This document shows positions 1,049 through 21,967 of a stretch of DNA of 64,000 bases, piece by piece (the first letter of the stretch is position 1; every line of letters starts with the position of its first letter). The notes under the pieces are model-generated. The model saw nothing but the letters and a program-made list of their open reading frames with translations, was not told the DNA's origin and ran no database searches. The DNA lies in the NCBI GenBank assembly GCA_965249135.1, contig OZ252220.1, positions 384,001 to 448,000 of the forward strand, given 5' to 3'. The position numbers and the translations under genes are program-made. Source of the stretch: Alphaproteobacteria bacterium. Its GTDB lineage: Bacteria; Pseudomonadota; Alphaproteobacteria; GCA-2746255.

Positions 1049-1837
1049 TTAAAACCAAAGCCTAAAACCCGTGACGAAGGAAATGCTTTGGACGTCTCCG
1101 CCTTTGTTGCGTGCGAAGTCGGCAGTGTCGCCGACCTTGTGGCTCCAGGCCACGCCCACATAAGGCGCGAACTCGCGCTCGATCTCGTAGCGCAGACGCA
1201 AGCCCGCTTCCGCCGTGCCGAGCCCCGAGCCGACGCCGATTTCCTCGACATCCTGAACCGCAAAGTTAAGCTCGGCGCGCGGTTGCAGGATCAGCCGCTG
1301 GGTGAGCAGCAACGCGTACTCGGCTTCGATGCGGGCAGAAACGTCGCCGTCTTCGCTGGCGAAGAGGGCGGCATCGACCTCGAACCAATAAGGCGCAAGG
1401 CCCTGGATACCAACAACGCCGTAGGTCTTTGACGGGCGGGGTTTGACGTCGTGCCGAACGCCAGCCTGAAAATCGAAATAAGGCGCGATGGCGCGGCTGT
1501 AGAGCACTTGGACCTCCGCCTCCTCGAAGGCGTCGTCGTCAAAGAGGTATTCGCCTTCGGTCTTCATCCAGACCTTATGGATGTCGCCGCCCACCCAGCC
1601 TTGTGCGTCCCAAAGCAGGCGCGGCGCGCCCTCGTTCGACTGGTATTCGAAGCGGTCGGCTTGCAGAAACAGCAACGTTCCGCCGCCGCTTCCCGCCTGA
1701 AGTTTGCGTTTCGCTGCCGCCATTTTTTCCGGGTCGTAATATTCCGCAGCCGCGTTCCACGTCCCGTCCTGCGCCAAAAGAGGGGCGTTAGCGGTTGCTG
1801 CCGCAACGATGCAAGCCGCGATTGCCAGACTTCGCAT
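1049..1837 (-). CDS. copB: Copper resistance outer-membrane protein CopB
   Basis: WDAQGWVGGD, GLAPYWFEVD, LRLRYEIEREFAPYVGV, C-terminal GFRLWF; directly downstream of copA. Confidence 0.93.
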   Translation of the reverse strand: MRSLAIAACIVAAATANAPLLAQDGTWNAAAEYYDPEKMAAAKRKLQAGSGGGTLLFLQADRFEYQSNEGAPRLLWDAQGWVGGDIHKVWMKTEGEYLFDDDAFEEAEVQVLYSRAIAPYFDFQAGVRHDVKPRPSKTYGVVGIQGLAPYWFEVDAALFASEDGDVSARIEAEYALLLTQRLILQPRAELNFAVQDVEEIGVGSGLGTAEAGLRLRYEIEREFAPYVGVAWSHKVGDTADFARNKGGDVQSISFVTGFRLWF

Positions 1838-3615
1838 TACCGAACCTCCGGCATCCGGTGACGCGTATGGTCCTCGCGATGCTCAGTTGGACGTATCGCG
1901 CCCGCCCGGGTCGCGCTCGCCCGGGCTGCATGTGGCCGGACGGAGACCACCTGCATCATGCCGGCGTGCATGTGGTAGAGCAGGTGACAGTGGAAGGCCC
2001 AGTCCCCAGGCGCGTTCGCGGTGATGTCGACGGATAGTTTTTCCCCCGGCTTGACGATCACCGTGTGCTTGCGCGGCTTGTGGCCCTTGCTACCGTTCAC
2101 CAGCTCGAAGAACATGCCGTGAAGGTGGATTGGATGCGGCATCATGGTGTCGTTCACCATGGTGAGCCGCACCCGTTCGCCCTCGTGAAAAAGGATGGGG
2201 TCGACGACCTCGGAAAACTTCACGCCGTCGAACGACCACATATAGCGCTCCATGTTGCCGGTGAGATGGACCTCCACCTCGCGACTCGGCAGGCGGGTGT
2301 CCGGATTTGGATCGAGACTTCTGAGCTTGGCGTAGCTGAGCGTCCGGTGCGGAACGTCTTCGAGCCCGATCCCCGGTTCGTCCAGGCGACTCGCAGGCGC
2401 CATCGCCACATTGGTGACGCCTGGACCCATCGGATGATCGTGTTCCGTCATGGCGTGGTCGCCATGCCCCGCCATGCCCATGCCCCCCGCCATGCCCATG
2501 TCCTTCATGGTGAGCAGCGGGCGGGGCCGGAGCGGCGGCACCTTTGCCGTCATGCCCGGCCGCGGCGCCAGCGTCGCGCGGCCATAGCCCGACCGGTCGA
2601 TCGACTCGGCCATGAAGGTGAAGGCGCGCTCCGCCGTAGGCTGAACGATGATGTCATAGGTCTCCGCCACGCCCATCTGGAATTCGTCGGTTTCAAGGGG
2701 GCGCAGGTTGAGCCCGTCGGCCTGCACCACCGTCATCGGCAGGCCGGGAACGCGGACGTTGAAGATTGTCGTCGCCGAAGCGTTGATGATGCGCAGGCGT
2801 ACACGTTCGCCTGGATTGAAAAGTGCGGTCCAATTGTCCTCGGGCCCGTGGCCGTTGACCAGATAGGTATAAGTAGCCCCGGTCACATCCGCGATGTCGG
2901 TCGGCGACATGCCCATGCGCCCCCACAGGAGCCGGTCGTCCAGAGCGCTCGCCAGCCCATTCGTGCGTGCGTCTGCGAGGAAGTCGGTGAAGGCGCGTTT
3001 CTGGTAATTGAGACTCTCGCCGTTTTTCTTGAGTACGGCGAACAGGCGATGCGGGTCCATGAAGGTCCAGTCGGACAGCACGATGACGTATTCACGGTCG
3101 TACGCCACCGGATCGTTGCCGGCGGGATCGATGATGAGGGGGCCGTAATGGCCGAGCTGTTCCTGCAGCCCGGAGTGGCTGTGATACCAGTAGGTGCCCG
3201 ATTGGCGGACCGGGAAACGGTAGGTGAACGTTTCGCCGGGCCCGATGCCTGGGAAGGTGATGCCCGGCACCCCGTCCATCTGGAATGGCAGCAGGATGCC
3301 GTGCCAGTGGATCGACGTGTCCTCGTCAAGGCCATTCGTGACGCGCAGGGCGATCTCGTCGCCCTCGCGCCAGCGCAAGAGCGGGGCCGGAACCGTACCG
3401 TTGATGGTAACCGCGTTGCCGGGCCGGCCATCGATGGAAACGGGCGTCTGGCCAATTTTGAGATCAAAGGCCGTTCCGGACAGGGCGTTGATGCCGGATA
3501 GGGCGTTCGTCGTTGCACCGCGCGCCCATGCCGGGAGAAGGGCTTGATAAGCGATCAATCCGCCAACCGAGGCCGCCGTCCTCAAAAATTTTCGCCGTGT
3601 AAACATTCTTCCCAC
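1837..3615 (-). CDS. copA: CopA-family multicopper oxidase
   Basis: Tat signal TRRKFL; copper motifs HWHG, WYHSH, HPIHLHG, HCHLLYHMHAGM; Met/His-rich insert. Confidence 0.95.
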   Translation of the reverse strand: MGRMFTRRKFLRTAASVGGLIAYQALLPAWARGATTNALSGINALSGTAFDLKIGQTPVSIDGRPGNAVTINGTVPAPLLRWREGDEIALRVTNGLDEDTSIHWHGILLPFQMDGVPGITFPGIGPGETFTYRFPVRQSGTYWYHSHSGLQEQLGHYGPLIIDPAGNDPVAYDREYVIVLSDWTFMDPHRLFAVLKKNGESLNYQKRAFTDFLADARTNGLASALDDRLLWGRMGMSPTDIADVTGATYTYLVNGHGPEDNWTALFNPGERVRLRIINASATTIFNVRVPGLPMTVVQADGLNLRPLETDEFQMGVAETYDIIVQPTAERAFTFMAESIDRSGYGRATLAPRPGMTAKVPPLRPRPLLTMKDMGMAGGMGMAGHGDHAMTEHDHPMGPGVTNVAMAPASRLDEPGIGLEDVPHRTLSYAKLRSLDPNPDTRLPSREVEVHLTGNMERYMWSFDGVKFSEVVDPILFHEGERVRLTMVNDTMMPHPIHLHGMFFELVNGSKGHKPRKHTVIVKPGEKLSVDITANAPGDWAFHCHLLYHMHAGMMQVVSVRPHAARASATRAGAIRPTEHREDHTRHRMPEVR

Positions 3616-4237: not shown

Positions 4238-5437
4238 ATGGTCGATTTCTCCCTTTCTCCGGAAATCCGCGACTTGCAGGTGCGCATCCGCGCCTTCGTC
4301 GCCGAACGCATTCTTCCCTTGGAGGCGGATCCGGCTTCCTTTGATGCCTACGAAAACATCGCCCCCGACCTTCTCGAAAAATTGCGTGGCGAGGCGAAAA
4401 GCCAGGGTCTCTGGGCGCTTCAGATGCCCAAGGAACGTGGCGGCCAGGGCTTGAACATGGCAGGCCTGGCGGTTGCCTATGAGGAGATGGGCCATTCCAT
4501 CTTCGGGCCCGTCGTCTTCAATGCGGCGGCGCCCGATGACGGCAACATGCTGCTGCTGAACCGCATCGGAACCGAGGCGCAGAAGGATCGCTGGCTGCAG
4601 CCGATCATCGATGGCGAGCTGCGCTCTGCCTTCGCGATGACGGAGCCGAACCCCGGCGCCGGCTCCGATCCGGGTGCGATGCGCACCGTCGCTACGAAAG
4701 AAGGCAAGAACTGGATCGTCAAGGGCGAGAAGTGGTTCACGACCGGGGCCGGAGTGGCGAAGCATTTCGTTCTCGTGGTCCGCACGTCGGACGATGAAAG
4801 ACGAGGCTTGAGCGCCTTTCTCTTCCATGGCGACCAGCCGGGCTGGGAGATCACGCGCCGCATTCCGATCATGGGACCGGAGGAGCATGGCGGGCATTGT
4901 GAGCTTCGCTTCGACGGCCTGGAAATCCCCGATGAGGCGCGACTCTTAGGAGTCGGCGACGGGCTCAAGGTCACCCAGATCCGTTTGGGCACGGCACGGC
5001 TCACCCATTGCATGCGCTGGCTCGGCATGGCGAAGCGGGCGCTGGAGATCGCCAGCCACTATGTCCGTTCGCGCGAGAGTTTCGGGATGAGGCTCTCCGA
5101 ACACGAAGGCGTCCAGTGGATGCTGGGGGAGGCGGCAAAGGAAATCGCGGTAGGCCGGCTGCTCACCCTGCACGCGGCCTGGAAACTGGATCAGGGGGAT
5201 TTCGCCCGCAAGGAGGTGGCGATGGCGAAGATCCAGGTCGCCGATACGCTGCACAAGGCGGTGGACACGGCGCTTCAGCTTTGCGGGGCGAAGGGCTACT
5301 CGAAGGACATGCCCCTTGAATGGATGTACCGCTATGCCCGTCAGGCGCGCCTCGTCGACGGTGCGTCCGAGGTCCACAAGATGGTGCTGGCCCGATTCCT
5401 GATTCAGGAAGGGAGGGAGTTCTGGTCGTGGGAGTGA
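4238..5437 (+). CDS. Acyl-CoA dehydrogenase (LvaC/ACAD10-11-like)
   Basis: AFAMTEP...GSD, GEKWF, RLVDGASEVH motifs. Confidence 0.9.
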   Translation: MVDFSLSPEIRDLQVRIRAFVAERILPLEADPASFDAYENIAPDLLEKLRGEAKSQGLWALQMPKERGGQGLNMAGLAVAYEEMGHSIFGPVVFNAAAPDDGNMLLLNRIGTEAQKDRWLQPIIDGELRSAFAMTEPNPGAGSDPGAMRTVATKEGKNWIVKGEKWFTTGAGVAKHFVLVVRTSDDERRGLSAFLFHGDQPGWEITRRIPIMGPEEHGGHCELRFDGLEIPDEARLLGVGDGLKVTQIRLGTARLTHCMRWLGMAKRALEIASHYVRSRESFGMRLSEHEGVQWMLGEAAKEIAVGRLLTLHAAWKLDQGDFARKEVAMAKIQVADTLHKAVDTALQLCGAKGYSKDMPLEWMYRYARQARLVDGASEVHKMVLARFLIQEGREFWSWE

Positions 5438-6459
5438 CGGAGCCCGCCTCCCAAACACGCCTTGAAACCTTCCTTGCCGATGCCTGTCAGGCGAATTCCG
5501 CGACGATTTTGGGGCTTCAACCCCTAACCGGCGGCGCCGTTCAGGAGAACTGGCGTCTCGACGTCACCCTTAAAGGCGGCGCTTATGAAGGCGCGCAGGC
5601 CTGGGTGCTCCGTATCACGGCACCCGCCATGATCCCGGACAGCCATTCGCGCACGCAAGAATTCGCGATCCTGAAGGTGATGGAGGCGGAAAGAATCGCA
5701 GCACCCAAGGCCCATTTCCTCTGTCGCGACGTGCACGTTCTGGGGCGCGAATTCTTCATCATGGAACGCCTGCCCGGGGTCGCCGCCGGCCACCGGCTGG
5801 TCCGGGACGCGAGTTTAGACGGCGAGGCGCTTACCGAGCGATTGGCCCAGGAACTCGGCCGCATCCATGCCATCCGGCCACCGCGCGAGGATCTGGCGTT
5901 CCTGAACCTGCCGGAGCCGACGCCGGCGCTTGAAATAGTCGCGCGCTTTCGTCGCCAAGTTGAGGCGGAAGCGGACCCGCACCCGGTTCTCGACTGGGCC
6001 CTTCGCTGGATGGCGCTGAATGCGCCGCGGCACCAGGCCCTCGTGCTCTGCCACCGGGATTTCCGCACCGGCAATTACCTGGTCGAGGCGGGCGCGTTCA
6101 CCGGTCTTCTGGACTGGGAATTCGCGAATTGGGGGGATCCGATGGAGGACGTGGGCTGGTTCTGCGCCAAGTGCTGGCGTTTCGGGGCAGTAACGCGCGA
6201 GGCGGGCGGCATCGGCCCGCGGGCGCTTTTCTACCGCGCCTATGAGGAAAGCTCCGGCTTATCCATTGATCCCGGCGCCGTCCATTTTTGGGAGGTGACG
6301 GCGCATCTCCGATGGGCGGTCATCGCCCTTCAGCAATGCGCACGCCACTTGAGCGGGACGCTGCCCTCGCTCGAGCTTGCACTCACCGGCCGACTTGCGG
6401 CAGAGATGGAGCTTGAGATTCTTGCGCTGATCGATCGATCCGACAAAGGGAGGCTCTAA
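5434..6459 (+). CDS. APH-family phosphotransferase (LvaA-like)
   Basis: HRDFRTGN and LDWEF kinase motifs; GTG start overlapping the ACAD stop (GTGA). Confidence 0.85.
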   Translation: MTEPASQTRLETFLADACQANSATILGLQPLTGGAVQENWRLDVTLKGGAYEGAQAWVLRITAPAMIPDSHSRTQEFAILKVMEAERIAAPKAHFLCRDVHVLGREFFIMERLPGVAAGHRLVRDASLDGEALTERLAQELGRIHAIRPPREDLAFLNLPEPTPALEIVARFRRQVEAEADPHPVLDWALRWMALNAPRHQALVLCHRDFRTGNYLVEAGAFTGLLDWEFANWGDPMEDVGWFCAKCWRFGAVTREAGGIGPRALFYRAYEESSGLSIDPGAVHFWEVTAHLRWAVIALQQCARHLSGTLPSLELALTGRLAAEMELEILALIDRSDKGRL

Positions 6460-6870
6460 ATGCAGGATCGCCCCACCTCGGCCCAGCTTCTGGAAGCAGC
6501 CTGTGAGGCCTTTACCCGTGGGTTGTTGCCGCAAGCTTCGGGGGAGAAGCGCTATCTGGCGCTGATGGTCGCGAACGCGATGGGGATCGTAAGCCGCGAC
6601 CTTCGGACTTCGACCCAGTCATTGAAGCAAGAACGCGAGCGTCTTCAAGAGCTTTTCTCGCTTTCCTCATCCGAAATTGCAAACTCAGACGCGCTGCAGA
6701 GCGAGGTCGAGGCGCTGAACCGACGCTTGGCCGCCGAGATCGGCGCCGGTGCCTTTGATGCACCTGTCGAGGCCCGTGAACGGGTCAAGGCCCATCTTCT
6801 CGAGACCACCCGCGAGAAGCTCCGCGCCAGCAACCCGAAGCACTTAGAGGCGGAAAGGAAAGGCGAATGA
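6460..6870 (+). CDS. DUF6285 / LvaB-like small protein
   Basis: MQDRPT..LLEA start, ...NPKH end; usual partner of APH-ACAD pairs. Confidence 0.7.
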   Translation: MQDRPTSAQLLEAACEAFTRGLLPQASGEKRYLALMVANAMGIVSRDLRTSTQSLKQERERLQELFSLSSSEIANSDALQSEVEALNRRLAAEIGAGAFDAPVEARERVKAHLLETTREKLRASNPKHLEAERKGE

Positions 6871-7187: not shown

Positions 7188-7661
7188 CTATTTGATCTCA
7201 AAGACGTGGTAGGCGACCCCGTTCGGAATGCGCCGTCCAATCGCGATGGCCAGCACGCGGTTCAGCCAGTCGTACTTCTTGGAAGCGGTCTCGAAGCGCA
7301 TGGAACTTCGGAAATAAAGCGTCGAAGGGTCGATCTCCACGTCTTCCCAGAACCGCATGAATTTCTCCATCGTCTCCGGCGTGCCGTGGATGTAGCCATG
7401 GTAGAAGAGGTAGATGAGTTCGCCATCGTCCGTCTTGAGCTGGGTACGGACGTCGATGACCAGCGTCCCATCGTCAAGGATGCGCAGCCAATCCGCGCCT
7501 GGAGCCAGAACCTCCCCCTTCATCTTCGGGCCTTCGAATTCGCCGCCGATGACCTCGACGATCAGGCGGTGGCCGTTTTCCACCGTCTTGCCGACGTCGT
7601 GGACGGCGCCGCCCACGTAAAGCTTGATGTCGAACAGCAGCTCGCCTTGTAGCTCGGGCAA
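7188..7661 (-). CDS. DUF3237 (UPF0311) beta-barrel protein
   Basis: GGEFEGP, GADW, DVRTQLKTDDG, YFR..MRFET..KYDWLN; TTG start with GGAGAGG RBS just after the hcmA stop. Confidence 0.85.
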   Translation of the reverse strand: MPELQGELLFDIKLYVGGAVHDVGKTVENGHRLIVEVIGGEFEGPKMKGEVLAPGADWLRILDDGTLVIDVRTQLKTDDGELIYLFYHGYIHGTPETMEKFMRFWEDVEIDPSTLYFRSSMRFETASKKYDWLNRVLAIAIGRRIPNGVAYHVFEIK

Positions 7662-7676
7662 TTGTGCTTTCCTCTC

Positions 7677-9377
7677 CTAGAAGACCGGCGTTTCGCGATA
7701 GGTCCCCCAAAGCTCCCTTAGGGCCTCGACGATGTCGCCCATGGAGGCGCCTGCCTTCACCAGCTCGACGGTGAGCGGCATCACGTTCTTCGTTTCGTCC
7801 TTCGCCACCTCGACGAGTTCCTTCAACAATTGCTGAACCTTCGCTTCGTCGCGGTCTTTTCGCACCTGGTTCAGCCGCCCGACCTGGCGTTCCGTGATGG
7901 TCTCGTCGTGGGCGTGGAGTTCCACGTCCAGCTTTTCGTCTTCTTCCGTGAACCGGTTGACGCCGATCAGCGGGTATTCGCCGCTCGCCTTCTTCGTCGC
8001 CGTCTCGTAGGCAAAATCGGCGATCTGGCGCTGGAACCAGCCTTCCTCGATCAGCTTCACCGTGCCGCCATGGGCATCGACCTCGTCGAGGATGCGGAAG
8101 GTTTCCTTCTCGAAGTAGGTCGTCAGGTTCTCGACGTAGTAGGACCCGCCCAATGGGTCGGCGACTTGGCTCACGTTCGATTCCTCGGCGATGACCTGCT
8201 GGGTGCGAAGCGCCAGCTTCATCGCCTCTTCCGTCGGAATGGCGAAGGCTTCGTCCATGCCGTTCACGTGCAGGCTTTGGGCGCCGCCCAGAACCGCAGA
8301 CAAGGCCTGTAGGGTCGTCCGCACGGTGTTGACGCGATATTGCGGCTTGGTCAGTGTCGCGGCGGCCGTTCCGCAGTGGAAACGTAGCCGCATCGATTCC
8401 GGGGATCGAGCCCCGAAGCGCTCCTTCATGATCTTCGCGTAGATGCGGCGTGCCGCCCGGAACTTGGCGATCTCCTCGAAGAAGTCCCGTTGGCAGACGA
8501 AGAAGAAGGAGAGGCGGGGCGCGAAGTCGTCGACGTCGATGCCGGCCTTCGTCACCTCGTCCACATAGGTGATCGTGTTCGCCATGGTGAAGGCGAGCTC
8601 CTGCAGCGGCGAGGAGCCGGCCTCCGAGATGTGATAGCCGGAGATGTTGATCGGGTTGAAGCGCTGCATGTGCTCGGCGCAGAACGTGATGCAATCGCGC
8701 ACGATGCGCACGGAGGGCCGGATCGGGTAGATCCATTCCTTTTGCGCCATGTACTCCTTCAGGATGTCGGCCTGGATGGTGCCGGCAAGCCGATGGGGGT
8801 CGAAGCCGCGCTTCTCGCCAAGGGCGTAGTACATGGCGAGCAGGATCCAGGCCGAAGGATTGATCGTCATGGAGACGGAGATGTTTTCCAGATCGATGTC
8901 GGCGTAGAGCGCTTCCATGTCGGCCAAGGTGTCGACGGCGACGCCTTCGCGGCCGACCTCGCCGGTGCTCATCGGGTGGTCCGAGTCGTAGCCCATCAGC
9001 GTCGGCATATCGAAATCCGTCGAGATGCCGGTCTGGCCCTGCGCAATCAGGTATTTGAAACGCCGGTTTGTGTCTTCACCCGTGCCGAAGCCGGCGATCT
9101 GGCGCATCGTCCAGGTGCGGCCGCGATACATGGTCGGGTAGGGGCCGCGGGTGAAAGGATATTGCCCGGGAAGCCCGATGTCCTCGATCGGGGTATCCTG
9201 CAGGTCGAGCGCCGTATAGACCCGCTTCACCGGAATGTCACCGAAGGTGGAAAAATCCTCCTTCTGTTCCGGCTGGCGTTTCAGGAAATGGGCGAGCTCT
9301 TCCTTCTCCCACTTCTCGAGCTGCTGCTCGAGCTGTTCGCGCGCCATGTTGTCCAGGGCCTGCTTCTCGTTGATCAT
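7677..9377 (-). CDS. hcmA: 2-hydroxyisobutyryl-CoA mutase large subunit, variant copy (Q336G, Q348R, I351T, I352V, A355T, T371V)
   Basis: RQIAGFG (Ile94 specificity position), STDFD (Asp121), C-terminal YRETPVF; intact 566-aa ORF with AAGGA RBS. Confidence 0.85.
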   Translation of the reverse strand: MINEKQALDNMAREQLEQQLEKWEKEELAHFLKRQPEQKEDFSTFGDIPVKRVYTALDLQDTPIEDIGLPGQYPFTRGPYPTMYRGRTWTMRQIAGFGTGEDTNRRFKYLIAQGQTGISTDFDMPTLMGYDSDHPMSTGEVGREGVAVDTLADMEALYADIDLENISVSMTINPSAWILLAMYYALGEKRGFDPHRLAGTIQADILKEYMAQKEWIYPIRPSVRIVRDCITFCAEHMQRFNPINISGYHISEAGSSPLQELAFTMANTITYVDEVTKAGIDVDDFAPRLSFFFVCQRDFFEEIAKFRAARRIYAKIMKERFGARSPESMRLRFHCGTAAATLTKPQYRVNTVRTTLQALSAVLGGAQSLHVNGMDEAFAIPTEEAMKLALRTQQVIAEESNVSQVADPLGGSYYVENLTTYFEKETFRILDEVDAHGGTVKLIEEGWFQRQIADFAYETATKKASGEYPLIGVNRFTEEDEKLDVELHAHDETITERQVGRLNQVRKDRDEAKVQQLLKELVEVAKDETKNVMPLTVELVKAGASMGDIVEALRELWGTYRETPVF

Positions 9378-9396
9378 CGCCTATCCTTTAAGCCGC

Positions 9397-11097
9397 CTAG
9401 AAGACCGGCGTTTCGCGATAGGTCCCCCAAAGCTCCCTTAGGGCCTCGACGATGTCGCCCATGGAGGCGCCTGCCTTCACCAGCTCGACGGTGAGCGGCA
9501 TCACGTTCTTCGTTTCGTCCTTCGCCACCTCGACGAGTTCCTTCAACAATTGCTGAACCTTCGCTTCGTCGCGGTCTTTTCGCACCTGGTTCAGCCGCCC
9601 GACCTGGCGTTCCGTGATGGTCTCGTCGTGGGCGTGGAGTTCCACGTCCAGCTTTTCGTCTTCTTCCGTGAACCGGTTGACGCCGATCAGCGGGTATTCG
9701 CCGCTCGCCTTCTTCGTCGCCGTCTCGTAGGCAAAATCGGCGATCTGGCGCTGGAACCAGCCTTCCTCGATCAGCTTCACCGTGCCGCCATGGGCATCGA
9801 CCTCGTCGAGGATGCGGAAGGTTTCCTTCTCGAAGTAGGTCGTCAGGTTCTCGACGTAGTAGGACCCGCCCAATGGGTCGGCGACTTGGCTCACGTTCGA
9901 TTCCTCGGCGATGACCTGCTGGGTGCGAAGCGCCAGCTTCATCGCCTCTTCCGTCGGAATGGCGAAGGCTTCGTCCATGCCGTTCGTGTGCAGGCTTTGG
10001 GCGCCGCCCAGAACCGCAGACAAGGCCTGCAAGGCCGTCCGGATGATGTTCACTTGATACTGCGGCTTGGTGAGCGTGGCTGCCGCCGTTTGACAGTGGA
10101 AACGTAGCCGCATCGATTCCGGGGATCGAGCCCCGAAGCGCTCCTTCATGATCTTCGCGTAGATGCGGCGTGCCGCCCGGAACTTGGCGATCTCCTCGAA
10201 GAAGTCCCGTTGGCAGACGAAGAAGAAGGAGAGGCGGGGCGCGAAGTCGTCGACGTCGATGCCGGCCTTCGTCACCTCGTCCACATAGGTGATCGTGTTC
10301 GCCATGGTGAAGGCGAGCTCCTGCAGCGGCGAGGAGCCGGCCTCCGAGATGTGATAGCCGGAGATGTTGATCGGGTTGAAGCGCTGCATGTGCTCGGCGC
10401 AGAACGTGATGCAATCGCGCACGATGCGCACGGAGGGCCGGATCGGGTAGATCCATTCCTTTTGCGCCATGTACTCCTTCAGGATGTCGGCCTGGATGGT
10501 GCCGGCAAGCCGATGGGGGTCGAAGCCGCGCTTCTCGCCAAGGGCGTAGTACATGGCGAGCAGGATCCAGGCCGAAGGATTGATCGTCATGGAGACGGAG
10601 ATGTTTTCCAGATCGATGTCGGCGTAGAGCGCTTCCATGTCGGCCAAGGTGTCGACGGCGACGCCTTCGCGGCCGACCTCGCCGGTGCTCATCGGGTGGT
10701 CCGAGTCGTAGCCCATCAGCGTCGGCATATCGAAATCCGTCGAGATGCCGGTCTGGCCCTGCGCAATCAGGTATTTGAAACGCCGGTTTGTGTCTTCACC
10801 CGTGCCGAAGCCGGCGATCTGGCGCATCGTCCAGGTGCGGCCGCGATACATGGTCGGGTAGGGGCCGCGGGTGAAAGGATATTGCCCGGGAAGCCCGATG
10901 TCCTCGATCGGGGTATCCTGCAGGTCGAGCGCCGTATAGACCCGCTTCACCGGAATGTCACCGAAGGTGGAAAAATCCTCCTTCTGTTCCGGCTGGCGTT
11001 TCAGGAAATGGGCGAGCTCTTCCTTCTCCCACTTCTCGAGCTGCTGCTCGAGCTGTTCGCGCGCCATGTTGTCCAGGGCCTGCTTCTCGTTGATCAT
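9397..11097 (-). CDS. hcmA: 2-hydroxyisobutyryl-CoA mutase large subunit, canonical copy
   Basis: TRGPYPTMY, RQIAGFG, RFHCQTAA, SLHTNG.DE; matches my recollection of Aquincola-type HcmA; no B12-binding domain (supplied by hcmB). Confidence 0.9.
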   Translation of the reverse strand: MINEKQALDNMAREQLEQQLEKWEKEELAHFLKRQPEQKEDFSTFGDIPVKRVYTALDLQDTPIEDIGLPGQYPFTRGPYPTMYRGRTWTMRQIAGFGTGEDTNRRFKYLIAQGQTGISTDFDMPTLMGYDSDHPMSTGEVGREGVAVDTLADMEALYADIDLENISVSMTINPSAWILLAMYYALGEKRGFDPHRLAGTIQADILKEYMAQKEWIYPIRPSVRIVRDCITFCAEHMQRFNPINISGYHISEAGSSPLQELAFTMANTITYVDEVTKAGIDVDDFAPRLSFFFVCQRDFFEEIAKFRAARRIYAKIMKERFGARSPESMRLRFHCQTAAATLTKPQYQVNIIRTALQALSAVLGGAQSLHTNGMDEAFAIPTEEAMKLALRTQQVIAEESNVSQVADPLGGSYYVENLTTYFEKETFRILDEVDAHGGTVKLIEEGWFQRQIADFAYETATKKASGEYPLIGVNRFTEEDEKLDVELHAHDETITERQVGRLNQVRKDRDEAKVQQLLKELVEVAKDETKNVMPLTVELVKAGASMGDIVEALRELWGTYRETPVF

Positions 11098-11100
11098 CGC

Positions 11101-12069
11101 CTATCCTTCCAACCGCATCTCGGCGAGCAGATCCACCGCCGCCGTGTATGGGTTCTTTTCATGGGCCATCATCTGGCCGATCAGTGCCGAGACTTTCCCG
11201 TCCCGGTGTTTCTTGAATTCGTCGCGCAAGATTTCTTCGGCCGTCTTCAACATCCGCCGTTCGGCGATTTGCTTTTTCCGTTCGGCGATTTCGCCGGAGG
11301 ATTCGAGGGCTTGCCGATGACGGTCGACCGCATCGACAAGCCCATCGATCCCCTCGGCCTTGAGCGCGCTCGTCGCGATCACCGGGACCTCCCAGCCGGA
11401 AGCCCCCGCAAGCGTTAATCCCAACGTCATCATAGCCTTTAAGTCGACGATCGTCCGGTTCGCATCCGGCCGGTCGCACTTGCTGACGACATGGATGTCC
11501 GCAATTTCAAGGATGCCCGCCTTGATCGCCTGGATGTCGTCGCCAAGACCGGGGGCGGAGATGACGACCGTCGTGTGCGCCGCCTGCACGATGTCCACCT
11601 CGTCCTGGCCGACGCCCACCGTCTCGATCAGGACCAAATCGAAACCGGCGGCATCCAGCACATCGACCGCATCCAGCGTGGATCGCGCCAGACCACCGAG
11701 CATGCCCCGCGTCGCCATGCTGCGGATGAAGATCCCCTTATCCCCCGAAAGCTCGTTCATCCGGATGCGATCGCCGAGGATGGCGCCGCCGGAGTAGGGG
11801 CTCGAGGGATCGATGGCGACGACGGCGATCTTGCGGTCGGACTTACGGACGGCGGCCATCAATTTTCCCATCAGTGTCGACTTGCCGCTTCCGGGAACGC
11901 CGGTGATGCCGACGATGTGCGCTCTTCCCGTGTGCCGATAGATATCGGCCATGGCCGGCCGGCACTCCTCGAGGCCCGACTCCGCGCGGGTGATCATCCG
12001 CGCGATCGCGCCGATGTCGGCGGCGAGCACCCGCTCGACGAGCTCAATGGAGGGGACGGCGTTGTTCAT
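11101..12069 (-). CDS. meaH: MeaB/MeaH G-protein chaperone of B12 mutase
   Basis: GVPGSGKS, DPSSPYSGGAILGDRIRM, ETVGVGQ. Confidence 0.92.
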   Translation of the reverse strand: MNNAVPSIELVERVLAADIGAIARMITRAESGLEECRPAMADIYRHTGRAHIVGITGVPGSGKSTLMGKLMAAVRKSDRKIAVVAIDPSSPYSGGAILGDRIRMNELSGDKGIFIRSMATRGMLGGLARSTLDAVDVLDAAGFDLVLIETVGVGQDEVDIVQAAHTTVVISAPGLGDDIQAIKAGILEIADIHVVSKCDRPDANRTIVDLKAMMTLGLTLAGASGWEVPVIATSALKAEGIDGLVDAVDRHRQALESSGEIAERKKQIAERRMLKTAEEILRDEFKKHRDGKVSALIGQMMAHEKNPYTAAVDLLAEMRLEG

Positions 12070-12073
12070 GGCG

Positions 12074-13507
12074 TCACGATCCGGTCATCTTATCTTGCAT
12101 CTCCCGGAAGACATCGCGGTCGTCGATGACGCGACGCGCCTTGAAGTCCGTCCGGGGGATCGAGTTAAGGGGCACGATCTCGACCTTCGTGCGCACCCCC
12201 AACACGCGTTGCAGATTGTCGGCGACGGTGATCCGGAAGCCCGTTATTGCTTCTTCGCCACGCTCGTGGAGCTCGGACGTTGCTTCCACGCGGACCAGCA
12301 ATTCATCCATGGTGCCCTCGCGCGAGACGATGATGCGGTGTTCGCCGCCATAGCCGTCGGTCTTGTTGAGGACGGCATCGATTTCGCTCGGATAGATGTT
12401 TTCCCCGCGAATCGTGAACTGATCGTCGATACGGCCGAAGATGCCGTGCGGAAGGTGCGGATAGGTCCGCCCGCATGGGGCGGGCCCGTCGTAGCGCCAC
12501 TCCGTGAGATCGCCAGACAGCAGGCGGATCATCGGCTGCGAGGTGCGCTCCAAATGCGTATAGACGGGCGTGCCCTTCTCGCCATAGGGGACGCGCCGGA
12601 AATTCACCGGATCGCACACTTCGCTATAGACGATGTCCTGCCACATCAGCATGCCTTCCGGCGTCCCTTCCGAGCCGGCGCAGTTCATCCATGGCGACAT
12701 CTCGGCCATCGAGCCGGAGTCGTAGATTTGGGCGCCATAGATAGCCTTGATCTTGTCGCGAATCCCGGGGATCGACGCCCCCGGCTCGCCGGAGAAGAAC
12801 AGGCATTTCAGGCCGAAGCTCTTCGGGTCCAGCCCTTCCTTGCGGGCCACCTCGCCCAGGTGCAGCGCATAGGAGGGCGTTCCATAAAAAGCCGTCGGCT
12901 TCATCTGATCGAGCCACTGGGCGGCGCGCGCGCTCATGCCGGGGGCGCCGGCGCCGAACGGGAAGGCCTTCGCGTGCAGGCGTTCGGCGCCGATCATCGC
13001 GCCCCACGAACCGAGGTAGAGGCTGAAGATCGCGGCGATGAAGATCGTATTGCCGGGGCGCAGGCCCATCCCGTAGATGATTCGCGCGTGCGCATTGGCA
13101 ATCGAGTCCCAATCGCCGCGGCCGATGGCGAACACGGTGGGCGTACCGGTGGTGCCGGACGTGCCGTGGATGTGATGGATCTCCGATTCGGGGATGCAAA
13201 GGTAATCGCCGAATTTCGGTGCCCGGGTTTGGGCCTCGCGCAAATCCTGTTTCGTCACCACCGGCACCTTGTCCTCGAAATCTTCGAGGGACTTCAGGTG
13301 GTCCGGATGAAAGCCCGCGTCGTCCCACTTCCGCTTGTAGAAGGGGGACTTGTCATAGGCGTAACGGGTGATCTCCTTGAGGCGTTCGAGTATCGCCTTT
13401 TCCCGGTCGCCTGGATCCATCGTTTCGCGCTTCGGAAACCAGTAGGGGGAAGCCGGATCCGGCAGGTAATCGGGATTGAATTTCGGTGGAAATGACCAGT
13501 CTTCCAT
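12074..13507 (-). CDS. hcl: 2-hydroxyisobutyrate-CoA ligase (PaaK-like)
   Basis: GTSGTTG, SGEPG, GRIDD...RGENIYP; N-terminal WSFP...YWFP.RETM as recalled for HCL; located in the hcm operon. Confidence 0.85.
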   Translation of the reverse strand: MEDWSFPPKFNPDYLPDPASPYWFPKRETMDPGDREKAILERLKEITRYAYDKSPFYKRKWDDAGFHPDHLKSLEDFEDKVPVVTKQDLREAQTRAPKFGDYLCIPESEIHHIHGTSGTTGTPTVFAIGRGDWDSIANAHARIIYGMGLRPGNTIFIAAIFSLYLGSWGAMIGAERLHAKAFPFGAGAPGMSARAAQWLDQMKPTAFYGTPSYALHLGEVARKEGLDPKSFGLKCLFFSGEPGASIPGIRDKIKAIYGAQIYDSGSMAEMSPWMNCAGSEGTPEGMLMWQDIVYSEVCDPVNFRRVPYGEKGTPVYTHLERTSQPMIRLLSGDLTEWRYDGPAPCGRTYPHLPHGIFGRIDDQFTIRGENIYPSEIDAVLNKTDGYGGEHRIIVSREGTMDELLVRVEATSELHERGEEAITGFRITVADNLQRVLGVRTKVEIVPLNSIPRTDFKARRVIDDRDVFREMQDKMTGS

Positions 13508-13525: not shown

Positions 13526-13942
13526 CTAGCGTGGGCCGCGTTCGGCAACCAAACGCTGCATCGTCTCGATGATGGTTTGAGGGGGCGTGTCCTGTAGCAG
13601 GACCTCCTTCACCCCGATCTTTTTTAGCTTGTCGACTTCTTCATCCGGAATCACGCCGCCGCCGGTGACGATGATATCCTCGGCCTTGTTTTCCTTCAGC
13701 AATTCGATGAGGCGCGGGAACACGGTCATGTGGGCACCGGACAGGATGCTGACGCCGATGATGTCGACGTCTTCCTGAATCGCGGCACGGACGACTTCCT
13801 CCGGCGTGCGGTGTAGGCCGGTATAGATGACATCCATTCCGGCATCGCGAAGCGTGCGAGCCACGACTTTCACGCCACGGTCGTGGCCGTCCAGCCCGAC
13901 CTTTGCGATCAGTACGCGGATGATATCTGAACCCTGGCTCAT
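13526..13942 (-). CDS. hcmB: Cobalamin-binding small mutase subunit
   Basis: DGHDRG (DxHxxG), SILSGAH, GGVIP. Confidence 0.9.
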
Positions 13943-13975: not shown

Positions 13976-14647
13976 TTAGGCTGCCTGGCCGCTTTGCTTG
14001 TGAAGTACGTGCTGCAGTTTTTCGCTCGCCGCCTCGACGTGTTTTTGCGCCAGCGCTTCCGCTTCTTCGGCGTCGCCTTCGGCGATGGCGTCGAGGATCG
14101 CGTCGTGCTCCATCCACACGCTCTCGCCATAGCCTTCGATGCGCAGCACCGCACTCATCACACGCCGAAGGTGATTCAAGTAAAGGCGCATCGTATCGGC
14201 GACGATCGTGTTGCCGGAAAGTTCGTAAATCAGACGGTGAAACTCCATGTCCGCGGCGATCAGCTTCGCAACGGAACCATTGGCAATCGCCTTCTGGCCT
14301 TGGGCTACGATGCGTTTGCCCCGGGTGACGTCCTGGGCCGTCGCGTGTCTGGCCGCCAAGCGCGCCGCCAAGCGGTCGAGCGCGCTTCGAAACTCATAGA
14401 GCGAACGCACGAAGCCCTCCTCGAGGGGAGAGACCATCAGCCCCCGGCGGCCGGACTTGCAGACGAAGCCCTGGCTCTTCAGCAGCATCAGCGCCTGGCC
14501 GACCGGCTGGCGGGAGACGTTGAGCTGTTCGGCGATGCTCTCTTGGGCGAGGCGCTCGCTTGGGGGGAGGCGGCCGTCGCAGATGGAATCGAGGATGGTC
14601 GTGTAGACCTGTTCCATCATACGGGGTTGGACGAGAAGCTTGCGCAC
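13976..14647 (-). CDS. GntR-family regulator (FCD domain)
   Basis: wHTH ERLAQESIAEQLNVSRQPV; FCD motifs DMEFH and EHDAILDAI; GTG start at 14647 with AGGAGG RBS. Confidence 0.9.
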   Translation of the reverse strand: MRKLLVQPRMMEQVYTTILDSICDGRLPPSERLAQESIAEQLNVSRQPVGQALMLLKSQGFVCKSGRRGLMVSPLEEGFVRSLYEFRSALDRLAARLAARHATAQDVTRGKRIVAQGQKAIANGSVAKLIAADMEFHRLIYELSGNTIVADTMRLYLNHLRRVMSAVLRIEGYGESVWMEHDAILDAIAEGDAEEAEALAQKHVEAASEKLQHVLHKQSGQAA

Positions 14648-14660
14648 GGAATCCCTCCTA

Positions 14661-14685
14661 TTTATTGGATACTGTATACAATAAA
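14661..14685. promoter_or_regulatory. Putative GntR operator 1 (TTTATTGGATACTGTATACAATAAA)
   Basis: Near-palindrome just upstream of gntR; core shared with the site at 16552. Confidence 0.65.
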
Positions 14686-14746
14686 CCGGACACGGCGCCG
14701 CCGCAAGAGGCTCGAAAAACAAGCAAATCTTTCAAACCCTTAGTCC

Positions 14747-16486
14747 TCATTCGTCCTCATTTCCGGCCTGCCAGGTGCGCTCGGCGCGGTCCCAGGCTTC
14801 CAGCGGCTGGGTGTCCGGCACCCAGGCTAGGCCCGACTTCCCATCGCCCGAGACCGCCTCGCGGGTCACCAGGACGTCGAGCACGGCCGGCGCGTTTTCG
14901 AAACAGCGTTCGATCGCATCGCCTAAATCCTCGACCCGCTCGACGCGTTCGCCATGGGCGCCAAGGGCGCGGGCCAGTGCGGCGTAATCCGAGTGGCGAA
15001 GTTCCGTGCCGACGAGGTTGCCGTCATAGGTGACGCGCTGGTCGTAGCATTCGATGTTCCAGGCGCCGTTATTGGCGACGACGAAGACCACCTTGGCACC
15101 GTGGCGGACGGCGGTGTCGACCTCGATCGCGTTGAATCCGAAGGAGCCATCCCCGGTTACGACGACGACCTGGCGGTCGGGCAGGGCAAGGGCGGCGGCG
15201 ATTCCAAACGGGACACCGACGCCGAGGCAACCCAAGGAGCCAGAGTCCATATAGGGGCCGGCCGACAGCGCCACGCGGGCGAAACTTAAGATGTCGCCGC
15301 CATCGGCAATGGTCACCGCATCCGGGGCGAGCTTCTCCTGCAAGATGCCGAGCAGGCGGTTCGGGTGCATGTGGCCGTCGCTTCCCGGTGCTGCCGTGGC
15401 GAGGAGGCGCGTGAATTTCTTCCGTTTCTTGCTGTGTTTCTCCCGCACGCCCTTCAGCCAGGCCCGGTCGACGGCGGGCTTTCGGTTGCCGGCCTCTTCC
15501 ACGATGGCGGTCAGCGCCAGCGCCGGTGTGGCCAGGATTTCAGCAAGCCCGCGCCGGTTGTCGCGAAGCTCGGATACGTATTCGGCCAGCCGTACGAAAC
15601 GCGCCTTCTTGAAGATGGCGGGCGATCCGTAGGCCAACTGGAAGTCGAGCCGTCGCCCGACGGTGAGCACGACGTCGGCTTCTGCCATCACCTGGCCGCG
15701 CAGCGAGGAAACCACCGCCGGGTGCGCATCGGGAACCAGACTGCGGCTTTCGGAGGTGTCGAGATAGACGGCATCCAGCGCATCGAGCAGGGCTAGAAGC
15801 TCAGGTCCCGCCTCCCTGGCACCGCGCCCGGAAACGACCAGCGGCCGCTTGGCGTTCCACAGCATCTCGACGGCGCGGCCCACGGCGTCGGCGTCCGGCA
15901 ACCGCTCGGGCTTCGGCTTTGCCTTTCGATGCTCCTCGAAGGCCAAATGGCCGGGCAAGTGTTCGCGCAGGAGATCGGTCGGAAAGTCGAGATAGACCGG
16001 GCCCGGCACGCAGCCGTCGCCGATCGCCCGGGCGAACGCCTCGTCGAGCGCCGGCAGCACGTGGGCCGCCTCCCGCACGGTCCGCGCATAGCGGGTGACG
16101 GAACGCAGCAGGTCCGTGTGCACCAGATCCTGGAGCGCGCCCATCCGTTCCTGGGGGCGGGGCGGCACGCCGGAGATGACGACGATCGGCGCCCGGGCCA
16201 CGTGGGCGTTGACGATGCCGGTCATCGCGTTCGTCACCCCGGGACCGGCCGTCGCCAAAACGACCCCGATGCCGCCGGTAAGTTCGGCATGGGCATGGGC
16301 CATATGGGCGGCGGCGCGCTCGTCACGGACATCCACGATACGGATCCCGCCCCGTGCGGCTTGGTCCCAGATCGGCATGACGTGACCGCCACACAGCCCG
16401 AAGATGCGGTCGATCCCACGCACGGCGAGGAATTCGGCGATCCGGCCGGCCACCGTCTCCGAGGCGGCGACGTCAGAGGCTCCCAT
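14747..16486 (-). CDS. ThDP-dependent 2-hydroxyacyl-CoA lyase (2-HIB-CoA lyase type)
   Basis: FGLCGGH..PIWD, DVRDE, GDGSFG...NN.AWNIE, C-terminal GLAWVPD.Q.L.AW lid resembling the actinobacterial HACL; ATG at 16486 with GGGAG RBS. Confidence 0.8.
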   Translation of the reverse strand: MGASDVAASETVAGRIAEFLAVRGIDRIFGLCGGHVMPIWDQAARGGIRIVDVRDERAAAHMAHAHAELTGGIGVVLATAGPGVTNAMTGIVNAHVARAPIVVISGVPPRPQERMGALQDLVHTDLLRSVTRYARTVREAAHVLPALDEAFARAIGDGCVPGPVYLDFPTDLLREHLPGHLAFEEHRKAKPKPERLPDADAVGRAVEMLWNAKRPLVVSGRGAREAGPELLALLDALDAVYLDTSESRSLVPDAHPAVVSSLRGQVMAEADVVLTVGRRLDFQLAYGSPAIFKKARFVRLAEYVSELRDNRRGLAEILATPALALTAIVEEAGNRKPAVDRAWLKGVREKHSKKRKKFTRLLATAAPGSDGHMHPNRLLGILQEKLAPDAVTIADGGDILSFARVALSAGPYMDSGSLGCLGVGVPFGIAAALALPDRQVVVVTGDGSFGFNAIEVDTAVRHGAKVVFVVANNGAWNIECYDQRVTYDGNLVGTELRHSDYAALARALGAHGERVERVEDLGDAIERCFENAPAVLDVLVTREAVSGDGKSGLAWVPDTQPLEAWDRAERTWQAGNEDE

Positions 16487-16551
16487 GCGGCGTTCTCCCA
16501 AGGGCAAATCGCATTAACTATTTGAATTATATATATTATATATTAGTTTAT

Positions 16552-18740: not shown

Positions 18741-18960
18741 TTTTCAAGGCGACAGGTTTATGGGCAAGTCGCTGACTCGAAATGTCCGTGAGGTGCAAAG
18801 CTAACATTCGCCGCTTGGCCTCGAAGGTCTGCTTTTAGGCAGGAGGGGATGTTTGATGGGTTACGGAAACCGGAATTATATTGGATCGTTGACCGAGCAG
18901 GCCACTCCTCCGCACCCTAAGACTAGGTACGTCCGGCGGATCGAGGAACGGTGAGTAGTG

Positions 18961-20589
18961 ATGCACATAAGCCATGTAGAAATCAGCAATTTTCGGTCGC
19001 TGCAGTCGGTGTCGGTGCCGTTAAATACGTTCAGTGTTTTGCTTGGTGAGAACGATGTGGGGAAAACTTCATTCCTTCATGCTCTCGACAAGTTCTTCCT
19101 TGGTAAGAAGCTCGTTGATCCCAACGATTGGTTCAAGAAGGACACGGGCAACGAAATCCGCATTGTGCTCACTTTTCAGGAAGCTCCCCACGACAGGCTA
19201 AAAGATTTTTGTCGCAGCGATGGGTCAATCGTAGTGAGCAAAGTGTTTCCGTTCGGCGAAAGCCCCCAAATCAAGGCAATTCTCGACGACAATTCCGCTA
19301 TGAGCATCCCAGGGCCGATACTGAGCAAGTGGTTCTCATCGGAGCGATTTCACTTCATTCCTGTCCGTCGTGACCTTGCAGTCCAGCTCTCAATGACCAA
19401 GACCGCTCTTCTCGGAAAAATGCTACGGGCTCGAATGAAGGAAAAACTTACAGATGGGGGCACCAAGACATCTCTTGAAGAACTGGAACACCTCCTTATG
19501 GATTCAATCTCCGAGCCGAGAACAATGCTTGAGAACTTTCTGCGACAGCAGATGCACGATAATGCTGTCCGACTCGGATTTGACGATCTCGAAATCGATC
19601 CGGTGGAGGGGGTCAAGTTCGTTGTGAACTTGTCTGATGATCGCGTAGATAACGTGAAAATTGAAAATCGGGGTGCGGGAACACAGAATAACTTGATCAT
19701 CGCTCTTTTCCGGTTGGTCGCTGACCTTGCTGCCGAGGGCTACCTAATCTTGGCGATGGAGGAACCCGAAAATAGTCTTCATCCGAAGGCACAACGTCAG
19801 CTCTTGTCGGTAATCCAAGAGATTAGCGTCAAATCGCAGGTTATCGTCACCACCCATTCACCTGTATTCATCGATCGGAGCCGTTTCGAGAACAATGTCC
19901 TAATGACACGTACTGCCAGCGGGAACACCGTTGCTAAGACGTTCGATGTTTCGTTACTCGATGAGGTCCGAACCGATCTCGGAATACGGGCGTCAGACGC
20001 GCTCCTTAAGGGCGGTGGAAACTGCGCGATATTAGTTGAAGGTAGTACAGAGGAGGATGGATTTCCAACCTTCATGGAGATGTGTGGAATGAGTGAATTC
20101 CACTTGGGTATCGCAATCATCAATATGAACGGCAGCGACTCTAAAAGAGCCGAAACAATCGCCCGATTACTCTACGCATATGATATCCCCTGCATCATTG
20201 TTTTTGATCGAAATGCAGAAAACGCGGCTAAGGATTTAGAGCGCGCAGCAGCAGCCTCGCTCCCAAACATTAAAAAAGTGTTCTGCCTGAGGAAGGGCAA
20301 CATCGAAGATTACTTTCCCCTTGAAATTATTGCGGATGTCATCAATCGCGAATTAAGTCCGACAAAGGAAGTTACCGTAACTGATTTCGATTCGAGCAAG
20401 TCGGGACAAGACCGTCTCAATGATTTCAAGAAGGTTATGTACGAACACGGAGCTGGCGGATCCACCAGGTACTTGAAAAGACTCCTCGGTGGTCTCGGGG
20501 CCAGGTTGATAAAGGAACGAGCTATACCCCTCGATCCTGAACTTGTTGAAATATTCAACACTGTTAAGGCAATTGCCGATCCGGATTAG
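18961..20589 (+). CDS. OLD-family ABC-ATPase/TOPRIM nuclease (putative anti-phage)
   Basis: ISNFRS, Walker A GENDVGKT, Walker B EEPE..LHP, TTHS, TOPRIM ILVEG..EE, IEDY; visibly lower GC than its flanks. Confidence 0.85.
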   Translation: MHISHVEISNFRSLQSVSVPLNTFSVLLGENDVGKTSFLHALDKFFLGKKLVDPNDWFKKDTGNEIRIVLTFQEAPHDRLKDFCRSDGSIVVSKVFPFGESPQIKAILDDNSAMSIPGPILSKWFSSERFHFIPVRRDLAVQLSMTKTALLGKMLRARMKEKLTDGGTKTSLEELEHLLMDSISEPRTMLENFLRQQMHDNAVRLGFDDLEIDPVEGVKFVVNLSDDRVDNVKIENRGAGTQNNLIIALFRLVADLAAEGYLILAMEEPENSLHPKAQRQLLSVIQEISVKSQVIVTTHSPVFIDRSRFENNVLMTRTASGNTVAKTFDVSLLDEVRTDLGIRASDALLKGGGNCAILVEGSTEEDGFPTFMEMCGMSEFHLGIAIINMNGSDSKRAETIARLLYAYDIPCIIVFDRNAENAAKDLERAAAASLPNIKKVFCLRKGNIEDYFPLEIIADVINRELSPTKEVTVTDFDSSKSGQDRLNDFKKVMYEHGAGGSTRYLKRLLGGLGARLIKERAIPLDPELVEIFNTVKAIADPD

Positions 20590-21710: not shown

Positions 21711-21740
21711 CGAGACTTCCTCCGATCCTTCGGCTTCCTC

Positions 21741-21782
21741 ATTCCCAGGGCGCCAATTCCCAGGGCGCCAATTCCTAGGGCG
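21741..21782. repeat. 15-bp tandem repeat ATTCCCAGGGCGCCA x~2.8
   Basis: Seen directly, upstream of the hydrolase start. Confidence 0.8.
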
Positions 21783-21891
21783 AAGGGATAAGGATTGTCG
21801 CACGAAGCGGAGGAAAGGGAAGGGCCGGACCTTTTTGGCCAGACCTTTCCTTGTTAGGCCAGGCCCTTCCTTGAAAACTGGCCTTGAAAAC

Positions 21892-21967
21892 TGGCTCCCC
21901 GGGTCGGACTCGAACCAACGACACAGCGGTTAACAGCCGCTTGCTCTACCAACTGAGCTACCGGGGA
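21892..21967 (-). tRNA. tRNA-Asn(GTT)
   Basis: TCCCCGGTAGCTCAGTTGGTAGAGC...CTGTTAA...GGTTCGAGTCC...GGGGAGCCA, 76 nt. Confidence 0.96.

Follow-up and report, generated by a model that had tools for sequence, protein, structure and literature searches.

Why would an operon for 2-hydroxyisobutyrate metabolism carry two genes for the large subunit of a B12-dependent mutase that are identical except in one small patch? The question is raised by a 64,000-nucleotide (nt) stretch of the genome of an uncultured, marine-type alphaproteobacterium (assembly GCA_965249135.1, contig OZ252220.1, positions 384,001 to 448,000), hereafter called the window, in which two hcmA genes for the large subunit of 2-hydroxyisobutyryl-coenzyme A (CoA) mutase (HCM) lie in tandem. 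HCM interconverts 2-hydroxyisobutyryl-CoA and 3-hydroxybutyryl-CoA with the help of adenosylcobalamin (AdoCbl). The host genome is a single 2.118-Mb contig from a metagenome-type assembly, with 60% G+C and 98.75% completeness. We refer to the upstream, canonical copy as hcmA1 (A1) and to the downstream, variant copy as hcmA2 (A2), and substitutions are written from A1 to A2. The hcm operon itself is well known, and what appears to be new, judging from sequence comparison, is a duplicate hcmA bearing G336 and V371; the parts of the literature on 2-hydroxyisobutyryl-CoA mutase and HcmA that were covered contain no mention of a duplicated hcmA or of a Gly-bearing mutase. We lean toward the view that hcmA1 and hcmA2 are a real paralog pair that gene conversion has homogenized while selection has maintained G336 and V371 in the second copy. 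HcmA2 is most likely a folded subunit with a reshaped, less polar cofactor and substrate pocket.

Anatomy of the tandem pair

The two genes lie head to tail on the same strand and were found independently as a direct repeat with an offset of 1720 (coordinates of all features are given in Table 1). The repeat spans 7676-9388 and 9396-11108, that is, the gene, 1 base past its stop codon, and 11 bases before its ATG. The 11-nt shared segment carries an AAGGA ribosome-binding site plus the meaH stop codon, in line with the claim in the initial annotation of two intact open reading frames (ORFs) of 566 amino acids (aa), each with a ribosome-binding site; both ORFs were recovered. A scripted comparison also returned exactly the six residue differences listed there, namely, Q336G, Q348R, I351T, I352V, A355T, and T371V, leaving the proteins 98.9% identical. 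At the DNA level, 20 nt differ, all of them in gene nt 1005-1112 (108 nt), and the remaining 1,593 coding nt are identical. If 20 differences were evenly spread, the chance that all would fall within 108 of 1,701 nt is about 3e-22. Eighteen of them lie in nt 1005-1068 (the divergence island), and the other two lie in codon 371, parted from the island by 42 identical nt. The changes CAA to GGA at codon 336 and ACG to GTG at codon 371 require two base substitutions apiece. Between the copies, the private linker reads CGGCTTA on the coding strand and CGGTTGG at the matching place upstream of hcmA1, with four of seven positions alike and three different. A diversity-generating retroelement target was considered and rejected, as hcmA1 has A as the starting base for just 6 of the 20 changes and the base-change spectrum is mixed.

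Both copies are assigned to the catalytic large-subunit family. The mutase large-subunit model TIGR00641 (acid_CoA_mut_N) gave 681.5 bits for hcmA1 and 670.7 bits for hcmA2 (cutoff, 303.8), and the model of the inactive beta subunit, TIGR00642 (mmCoA_mut_beta), gave 203.6 and 200.8 bits, below its cutoff of 617.25. hcmA1 aligned with the HcmA structure 4R3U_A gap-free over residues 9-566 (E value = 2.3e-296, 987 bits), and its operon includes a separate HcmB, a MeaH, and an HCL ligase, as expected of an HcmA. Work of Kurteva-Yaneva from 2015 is said to define HCM specificity by Ile90 and Asp117 (A. tertiaricarbonis numbering). The initial annotation was right that both copies retain Ile94 and Asp121, and these residues are shared by 158 of 161 and 160 of 161 homologs, respectively. 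The conserved HxQT glutamine and HTN threonine are present in hcmA1 and are replaced by Gly336 and Val371 in hcmA2.

Alignment places Q336 at position 329 of the 727-residue Propionibacterium shermanii chain 1req_A, which we take to be Gln330 of its methylmalonyl-CoA mutase (MCM), with Met1 counted. T371, N372, and E376 align with Thr365, Asn366, and Glu370 of the same enzyme, upholding the mapping to Gln330 and to the Asn366/Glu370 pair of the HTN..DE strand that the initial annotation had proposed. Gln330 presumably touches the adenosyl group. The counterparts of Q336, T371, N372, and E376 in human MMUT are Gln352, Thr387, Asn388, and Glu392 by alignment, with which the strand Ala349-Thr353 and published variant names agree. 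In the numbering of 4R3U, Q336 and T371 correspond to Gln332 and Thr367.

All four mutase families encoded in this genome, namely, HCM, MCM, an ECM-like protein of 680 aa, and an IcmF-like protein, have kept the glutamine, and the HTN threonine is missing from the ECM-like protein. To estimate conservation, we used HcmA homologs found by methods blind to positions 336 and 371, namely, metagenome loci and five congeners (the unbiased set). Q336 was present in every one of the 79 metagenome loci and in all five congeners (84/84), and T371 was present in 76 of 77 loci, the other having Ala, and 5 of 5 congeners (81/82). Positions 348, 351, 352, and 355, in contrast, vary freely across ordinary HcmA proteins. 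Among about 200 of these, R348 occurred in 16, T355 in 33, and T351 in only 2, and V352 is the majority state (159/202). Their spacing (i, i+3, i+4, i+7) corresponds to one face of a helix. An AlphaFold2 model built on a 36-sequence alignment has a strand at 332-336 and a helix at 344-363, for which the matching human MMUT helix is Asn365-Phe379; the model is of low confidence (mean predicted local distance difference test [pLDDT] score, 66) and was used only for these two elements.

Recurrence of the variant and probable concerted evolution

Searching a 5.8-billion-protein collection with hcmA2 gave 7,989 matches at an E value of ≤1e-100, the best 120 of which were listed; together with the members of 18 clusters, 169 proteins were examined in total. 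These included four more full-length proteins with Gly336 and Val371 (P0004, P0005, P0124, and P0127), 93 to 97% identical to hcmA2. P0004 and P0127 have the full six-residue signature, and P0005 and P0124 have G336 and V371 only. Over all of the proteins examined, 156 combined Gln with Thr, 5 (hcmA2 and these four) combined Gly with Val, none was mixed, and 8 were fragments lacking one or both motifs. This perfect coupling suggests that the two side chains work together. The constant core of the difference would be Gly in place of the superfamily-conserved Gln336 plus Val in place of Thr371, with R348, T351, V352, and T355 as optional baggage. Close relatives in the search carry the source label Alphaproteobacteria.

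Outside the six sites, there were no differences between A1 and A2, among P0004, P0005, and the canonical protein P0006, or between the canonical protein P0008 and P0124. P0005 and P0124 depart from their canonical twins solely at positions 336 and 371. The three backgrounds differ mutually at 14 to 16 residues and differ from the P0009/P0127 lineage at 33 to 40 residues. Because the same longest contig is reported for P0005 and P0006 (652,446 nt) and for P0008 and P0124 (566,716 nt), each pair very probably shares one contig; the contigs for P0004 and P0127 measure 52,894 and 74,340 nt, respectively. The initial annotation asked whether homologs with HCGT and SLHVN sit beside a canonical copy. 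The answer is positive in that three of the four G336/V371 proteins have a canonical protein of the same background, and two such pairs have an equal longest contig; the adjacency itself is deduced and not seen.

At the protein level, the paralogs are thus identical within a genome and diverged between genomes, with the same differences retained, in three backgrounds and for all five variants. Identity within genomes, divergence between them, and two sites that always differ together point to gene conversion with selection guarding those sites. The full six-residue signature is carried by P0127, whose background is the most distant, as well as by the window and P0004. On these sequences, the simplest history would be an older, full island whose helix part was later erased by conversion in P0005 and P0124, with G336 and V371 spared. 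An older duplication fits better than a fresh one because the linker has diverged although the genes are identical, and because 9 of the 17 same-residue codons in the island differ between hcmA1 and hcmA2, a share on a par with that between hcmA1 and congener orthologs in the same stretch (5/21 to 14/20) and above the values for the whole gene (25 to 41%). Alternatively, the island could have been imported from a foreign allele. Neither the genome, whose three other mutase paralogs match at 72 to 75% across 44 to 94 nt, nor the 199 fetched HcmA loci, the best of which (L153) matches at 54 of 66 nt, yielded a donor.

No tandem hcmA was found elsewhere among the fetched hcmA loci, and two candidates, L115 and L180, are split or rearranged single genes. 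In L115 (3294-5347), the last 119 hcmA residues are inverted and lie upstream of the remainder of the gene. The hcmA of congener G004 is divided between the ends of contigs C203 and C94, with identity to the window of 90% for residues 1-180 and 82% for residues 182-566. The breaks in L115 and G004 are possibly assembly breaks or mixed bins.

Alternative explanations and the possible role of HcmA2

Sequencing runs were available as contigs only, and run X1 probably stems from the sample of the window itself, which makes it supportive and not independent. In X1, each of the two island forms has a 124-nt contig of its own that matches without mismatch (8280-8403 at a depth of 3 and 10000-10123 at a depth of 4.9). 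The shared arms have depths of 8.4 to 11.9, and the unique flanks have depths of 2.1 and 6. Contigs of X1 end at 7705 and 11108, as expected because a repeat would branch the assembly graph there, and the depth of the bin 9276-9409 over the junction is beyond the arm contig's share and fits a junction contig at about 6x, equal to the meaH-side branch. X6, from another study, has contigs with the same ends (9396-9921 and 10000-10123). Arm depth is about double flank depth in X6 (9.5 versus 5.15) and X7 (5.9 versus 2.9), and the contigs break at the start codon. Such a pattern hints at a two-copy arrangement with another linker in other populations as well, although mixed strains could look alike. 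The exact window junction is uncovered in X5 to X7, where gaps in contig cover prove nothing, and the X6 junction bin is fully accounted for by the arm contig. X5, again from another study, has C at 10091 and 10092 (19.4/19.4 depth), so that codon 336 reads GGA within an island that otherwise resembles that of A1; this matches the P0005/P0124 type. Contigs of several runs also end within the shared arms, e.g., near 9898-9921 (/ 8178-8201), 9017, and 10822; these ends may reflect k-mers shared with other organisms' mutases or real copy differences in some strains.

These data bear on whether two strain alleles of one locus were simply written in tandem during assembly, as might happen in a single-contig metagenome-type genome when run X1 is probably from the same sample and the remaining runs contain several related strains. 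Such an artifact is now unlikely, and we give it very little weight, as the junction holds seven private bases that no assembler would invent. The X1 arms have ~2x the depth of the flanks and of each island form, contigs break exactly where the repeat ends, the junction bin shows excess depth, and two other assemblies each have a canonical and a G/V protein with an equal longest contig. A real but recent dosage duplication, carrying a neutral mosaic patch recombined from another hcmA allele, would leave G336 and V371 without adaptive meaning, to be erased or to decay. This fits with the island resembling an ordinary foreign allele (the match to L153), with R348, V352, and T355 being common in other HcmA proteins, with synonymous divergence (9/17 codons) at the level seen between congeners here, and with the single hcmA copy in those congeners. 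We nevertheless find it rather improbable, as possible donor lineages lack G336 (0/84) and V371 (0/82 in the unbiased set), and these residues persist in four backgrounds and outlast the helix patch in P0005 and P0124, which is the opposite of neutral erasure. A linker that differs at three of seven positions while the genes are identical also misfits a fresh duplication.

A further possibility is that G336 and V371 abolish radical catalysis, in which case HcmA2 would be a noncatalytic or regulatory partner, either the silent member of an A1/A2 heterodimer or a scaffold for cofactor loading or repair. The replaced glutamine is kept by each of the four catalytic mutase families of the genome and throughout the unbiased set, the identical surfaces make heterodimers plausible, and the arrangement resembles the inactive beta subunit of the Propionibacterium MCM heterodimer. 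In the parts of two papers available to us, changes of first-shell residues in an Hcm left 2 to 17% of wild-type turnover (PMC11599936; source data of Suppl. Fig. 6B), and human MMUT Thr387Ile, at the site matching T371, is listed in a B12-non-responsive patient (PMC11998238). On these grounds, a silent or regulatory partner stays a serious rival, even if we consider it unlikely. Inactivation needs no set residue, yet the same Gly and Val, at two base changes each, are found in five of five variants with no mixed forms. In addition, Thr to Val is isosteric and preserves the pocket, and hcmA2 scores far below the cutoff of the beta-subunit family (200.8 bits versus 617).

Our own proposal is that the tandem paralogs at the end of the 2-hydroxyisobutyrate operon are kept identical by repeated gene conversion, except in a small island, where selection maintains the differences of the second copy. 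hcmA2 would give a folded subunit that shares its mRNA with hcmA1, uses the same HcmB and MeaH, and may mix with HcmA1 because all other residues are identical. In the HcmA2 pocket beside the cofactor and substrate, a polar Gln/Thr pair would be lost and a cavity gained. The change of Gln to Gly would open space, and the isosteric change of Thr to Val would remove a hydroxyl that would otherwise lose its partner; neither seems destructive in kind. As a leading guess, we speculate that the changed pocket either shifts the substrate range toward bulkier tertiary 2-hydroxyacyl-CoA esters or alters the handling of the adenosyl radical. The former is attractive because the operon also encodes a lyase. 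Sulfate reducers combine a thiamine diphosphate (ThDP) enzyme with a B12 mutase and, according to the part of the paper available, use the same protein set for acetone, butanone, and pentanones (PMC7888143). We therefore put forward, tentatively, that HcmA2 may be an active acyl-CoA mutase without the conserved glutamine, having a job different from that of HcmA1 by virtue of its Gly336/Val371 pocket, for example, acting on esters made from butanone or pentanones by the neighboring lyase or controlling the adenosyl radical differently. If so, two specificities would be served by a single operon with one small subunit and one chaperone, possibly in mixed A1/A2 complexes, and gene conversion would keep all but the pocket identical.

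Several observations weigh against this proposal or the gene conversion behind it. The low residual turnover after first-shell changes means that Gln to Gly could simply cripple catalysis. Every G/V protein is at least 93% identical to hcmA2, and all proteins at 89% identity or less are canonical, among the matches listed and the cluster members that were readable. The variant DNA pattern RFHCGTAAATLT had 0 matches in scans of genome_contigs and metagenome_contigs, which says little, as near relatives of the window may be absent from both; in a control scan, the canonical pattern RFHCQTAAATLT had at least 119 matches in genome_contigs. Confinement of the variant to close relatives and its absence from the two scans thus indicate a narrow, young clade. 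The congeners (G001 to G005) and L039 have the same operon with a single canonical hcmA as assembled, but multicontig short-read assemblies could collapse such a repeat. X5 shows no change at codon 371 among the rows listed, which would break the G/V coupling, unless merged small bubbles or unlisted rows explain it. The adjacency of the gene pair in other assemblies is deduced from the equal longest contigs, those assemblies may share a pipeline with the window, and consensus polishing could overstate the identity of the arms. Finally, the AlphaFold2 model is poor around residues 364-386 (pLDDT < 50), and the adenosyl contact of Gln336 is a presumed one.

Acyl-CoA mutases are hard to re-engineer, as changes close to the radical center usually cripple them. 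Here, a two-residue change at that center has seemingly been made and kept by nature on an otherwise identical background, which would be a clean natural experiment on how the conserved Gln/Thr pair contributes to activating the Co-C bond or positioning the substrate. The change may also give a lead to new mutase specificities for synthetic pathways built on 2-hydroxyisobutyryl-CoA. More generally, the pair would be a bacterial example of concerted evolution in which selected sites alone escape homogenization.

Operon context and relation to known systems

On the minus strand, the gene order is 2-hydroxyacyl-CoA lyase, GntR, hcmB, hcl, meaH, hcmA1, hcmA2, and DUF3237 (Table 1).

Table 1. Features of the hcm operon and of the hcmA repeat (positions in the window)
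Feature	Positions	Strand	Remarks
DUF3237 gene	7188..7661	minus	PF11578, E 6e-41; starts 16 nt past hcmA2 stop
hcmA2, variant HCM large subunit	7677..9377	minus	566-aa ORF, ATG start; HCGT / SLHVN; G336, R348, T351, V352, T355, V371; I94, D121
Codon 371 of hcmA2	8265..8267	minus	GTG (Val); hcmA1 counterpart ACG (Thr) at 9985-9987
Divergence island of hcmA2, codons 335-356	8310..8373	minus	18 nt differences; codon 336 GGA at 8370-8372
Intercopy spacer, 19 nt	9378..9396	minus	9378-9388, 11-nt duplicate with AAGGA; 9389-9395, private 7-nt linker; 9396, base shared with position after hcmA2 stop
hcmA1, canonical HCM large subunit	9397..11097	minus	566-aa ORF, ATG start; HCQT / SLHTN; I94, D121
hcmA1 counterpart of island	10030-10093	minus	Codon 336 CAA at 10090-10092
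meaH, MeaB-family G-protein chaperone	11101..12069	minus	TIGR00750, 325.8 bits (cutoff 240.75); stop codon inside duplicated 11 nt
hcl-like, PaaK-family acid-CoA ligase	12074..13507	minus	TIGR02155, E 5e-75, below that model's cutoff; position as in hcl-hcm clusters in the available part of PMC7176365
hcmB, B12-binding small subunit	13526..13942	minus	TIGR00640, 155.2 bits (cutoff 57.45)
GntR-family regulator	13976..14722	minus	Profile match
2-Hydroxyacyl-CoA lyase, actinobacterial type (ThDP enzyme)	14747..16507	minus	NF058623, 851.9 bits (cutoff 600)

hcmB is the only stand-alone B12 small subunit in the genome, the three other TIGR00640 matches over the cutoff being fused in frames of 680 to 1107 aa, and meaH is its sole stand-alone MeaB-family GTPase. 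The earlier claim of one hcmB and one meaH therefore extends from the window to the whole genome, and the hcmA1 and hcmA2 products must use the same partners. The genome also encodes a fused 722-aa MCM (G000:C1:1381516-1383636), yet meaH is the only stand-alone chaperone of the MeaB type; either more than one mutase may rely on meaH, or the MCM may be chaperone-free.

Because a lyase heads the mutase operon, the cluster covers the two fates known for 2-hydroxyisobutyryl-CoA; alternatively, it could lead from acetone plus formyl-CoA toward 3-hydroxybutyryl-CoA. Among the hcmA loci fetched, 8 of the 80 from metagenomes and 11 of the 119 from genomes had a lyase homolog in their flanks. L039, a 67-kb contig, has the entire operon in the same order with its one canonical hcmA. 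A DUF3237 gene also follows the single hcmA in L012 (79% identity) and L039 (78% identity) and may belong to the hcm operon. Elsewhere in the window, an OLD-family ATPase/TOPRIM nuclease (AAA_15, OLD-like_TOPRIM) lies beside ORFs of 345 and 291 aa without a Pfam match (18958-20589, plus strand; 20766-23224, minus strand), a region that may be a small defense island. A multicopper oxidase and CopB pair (copper resistance; 1049-3615, minus strand) lies just upstream of an acyl-CoA dehydrogenase/APH-kinase/DUF6285 group at 4238-6870.

The closest known system is HcmAB of A. tertiaricarbonis L108 (PDB 4R3U) with its MeaH and HCL, to which both copies align end to end and with which they share the Ile/Asp pair at 94/121. 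The available description of its cluster also gives an hcmB-hcl-meaH-hcmA operon with a GntR regulator (PMC7176365). The window differs in having two large-subunit genes, the second of which encodes Gly in place of the conserved Gln and Val in place of the HTN Thr, and in having a 2-hydroxyacyl-CoA lyase at the head of the operon.

Two paralogous large subunits side by side, with the possibility of a mixed dimer, recall the alpha and beta chains of P. shermanii MCM (1REQ), and the changed glutamine is Gln330 of its alpha chain. The beta chain of that enzyme is long diverged and has no active site. The copies described here, in contrast, are nearly identical, differing at six buried positions only, and hcmA2 scores far below the cutoff of the beta-subunit model.

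One organism with two forms of 2-hydroxyisobutyryl-CoA mutase is known in Bacillus massiliosenegalensis JC6, whose HCM and RCM presumably act on different substrates or stereoisomers, as far as the available part of PMC7176365 goes. Its two forms are distantly related and belong to separate systems, whereas the window has a near-identical tandem sharing one small subunit and one chaperone. Ketone formylation in Desulfococcus and Desulfosarcina likewise involves a ThDP lyase-type enzyme and a 2-hydroxyisobutyryl-CoA mutase encoded in one cluster and induced on acetone, butanone, and pentanones (PMC7888143). Those anaerobes differ in having an RcmAB-like mutase and a distant ThDP enzyme, and no doubled large subunit is reported in the part of that paper available. 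Induction of the same enzymes on all of these ketones provides a rationale for larger tertiary acyl-CoAs as substrates of a mutase such as HcmA2.

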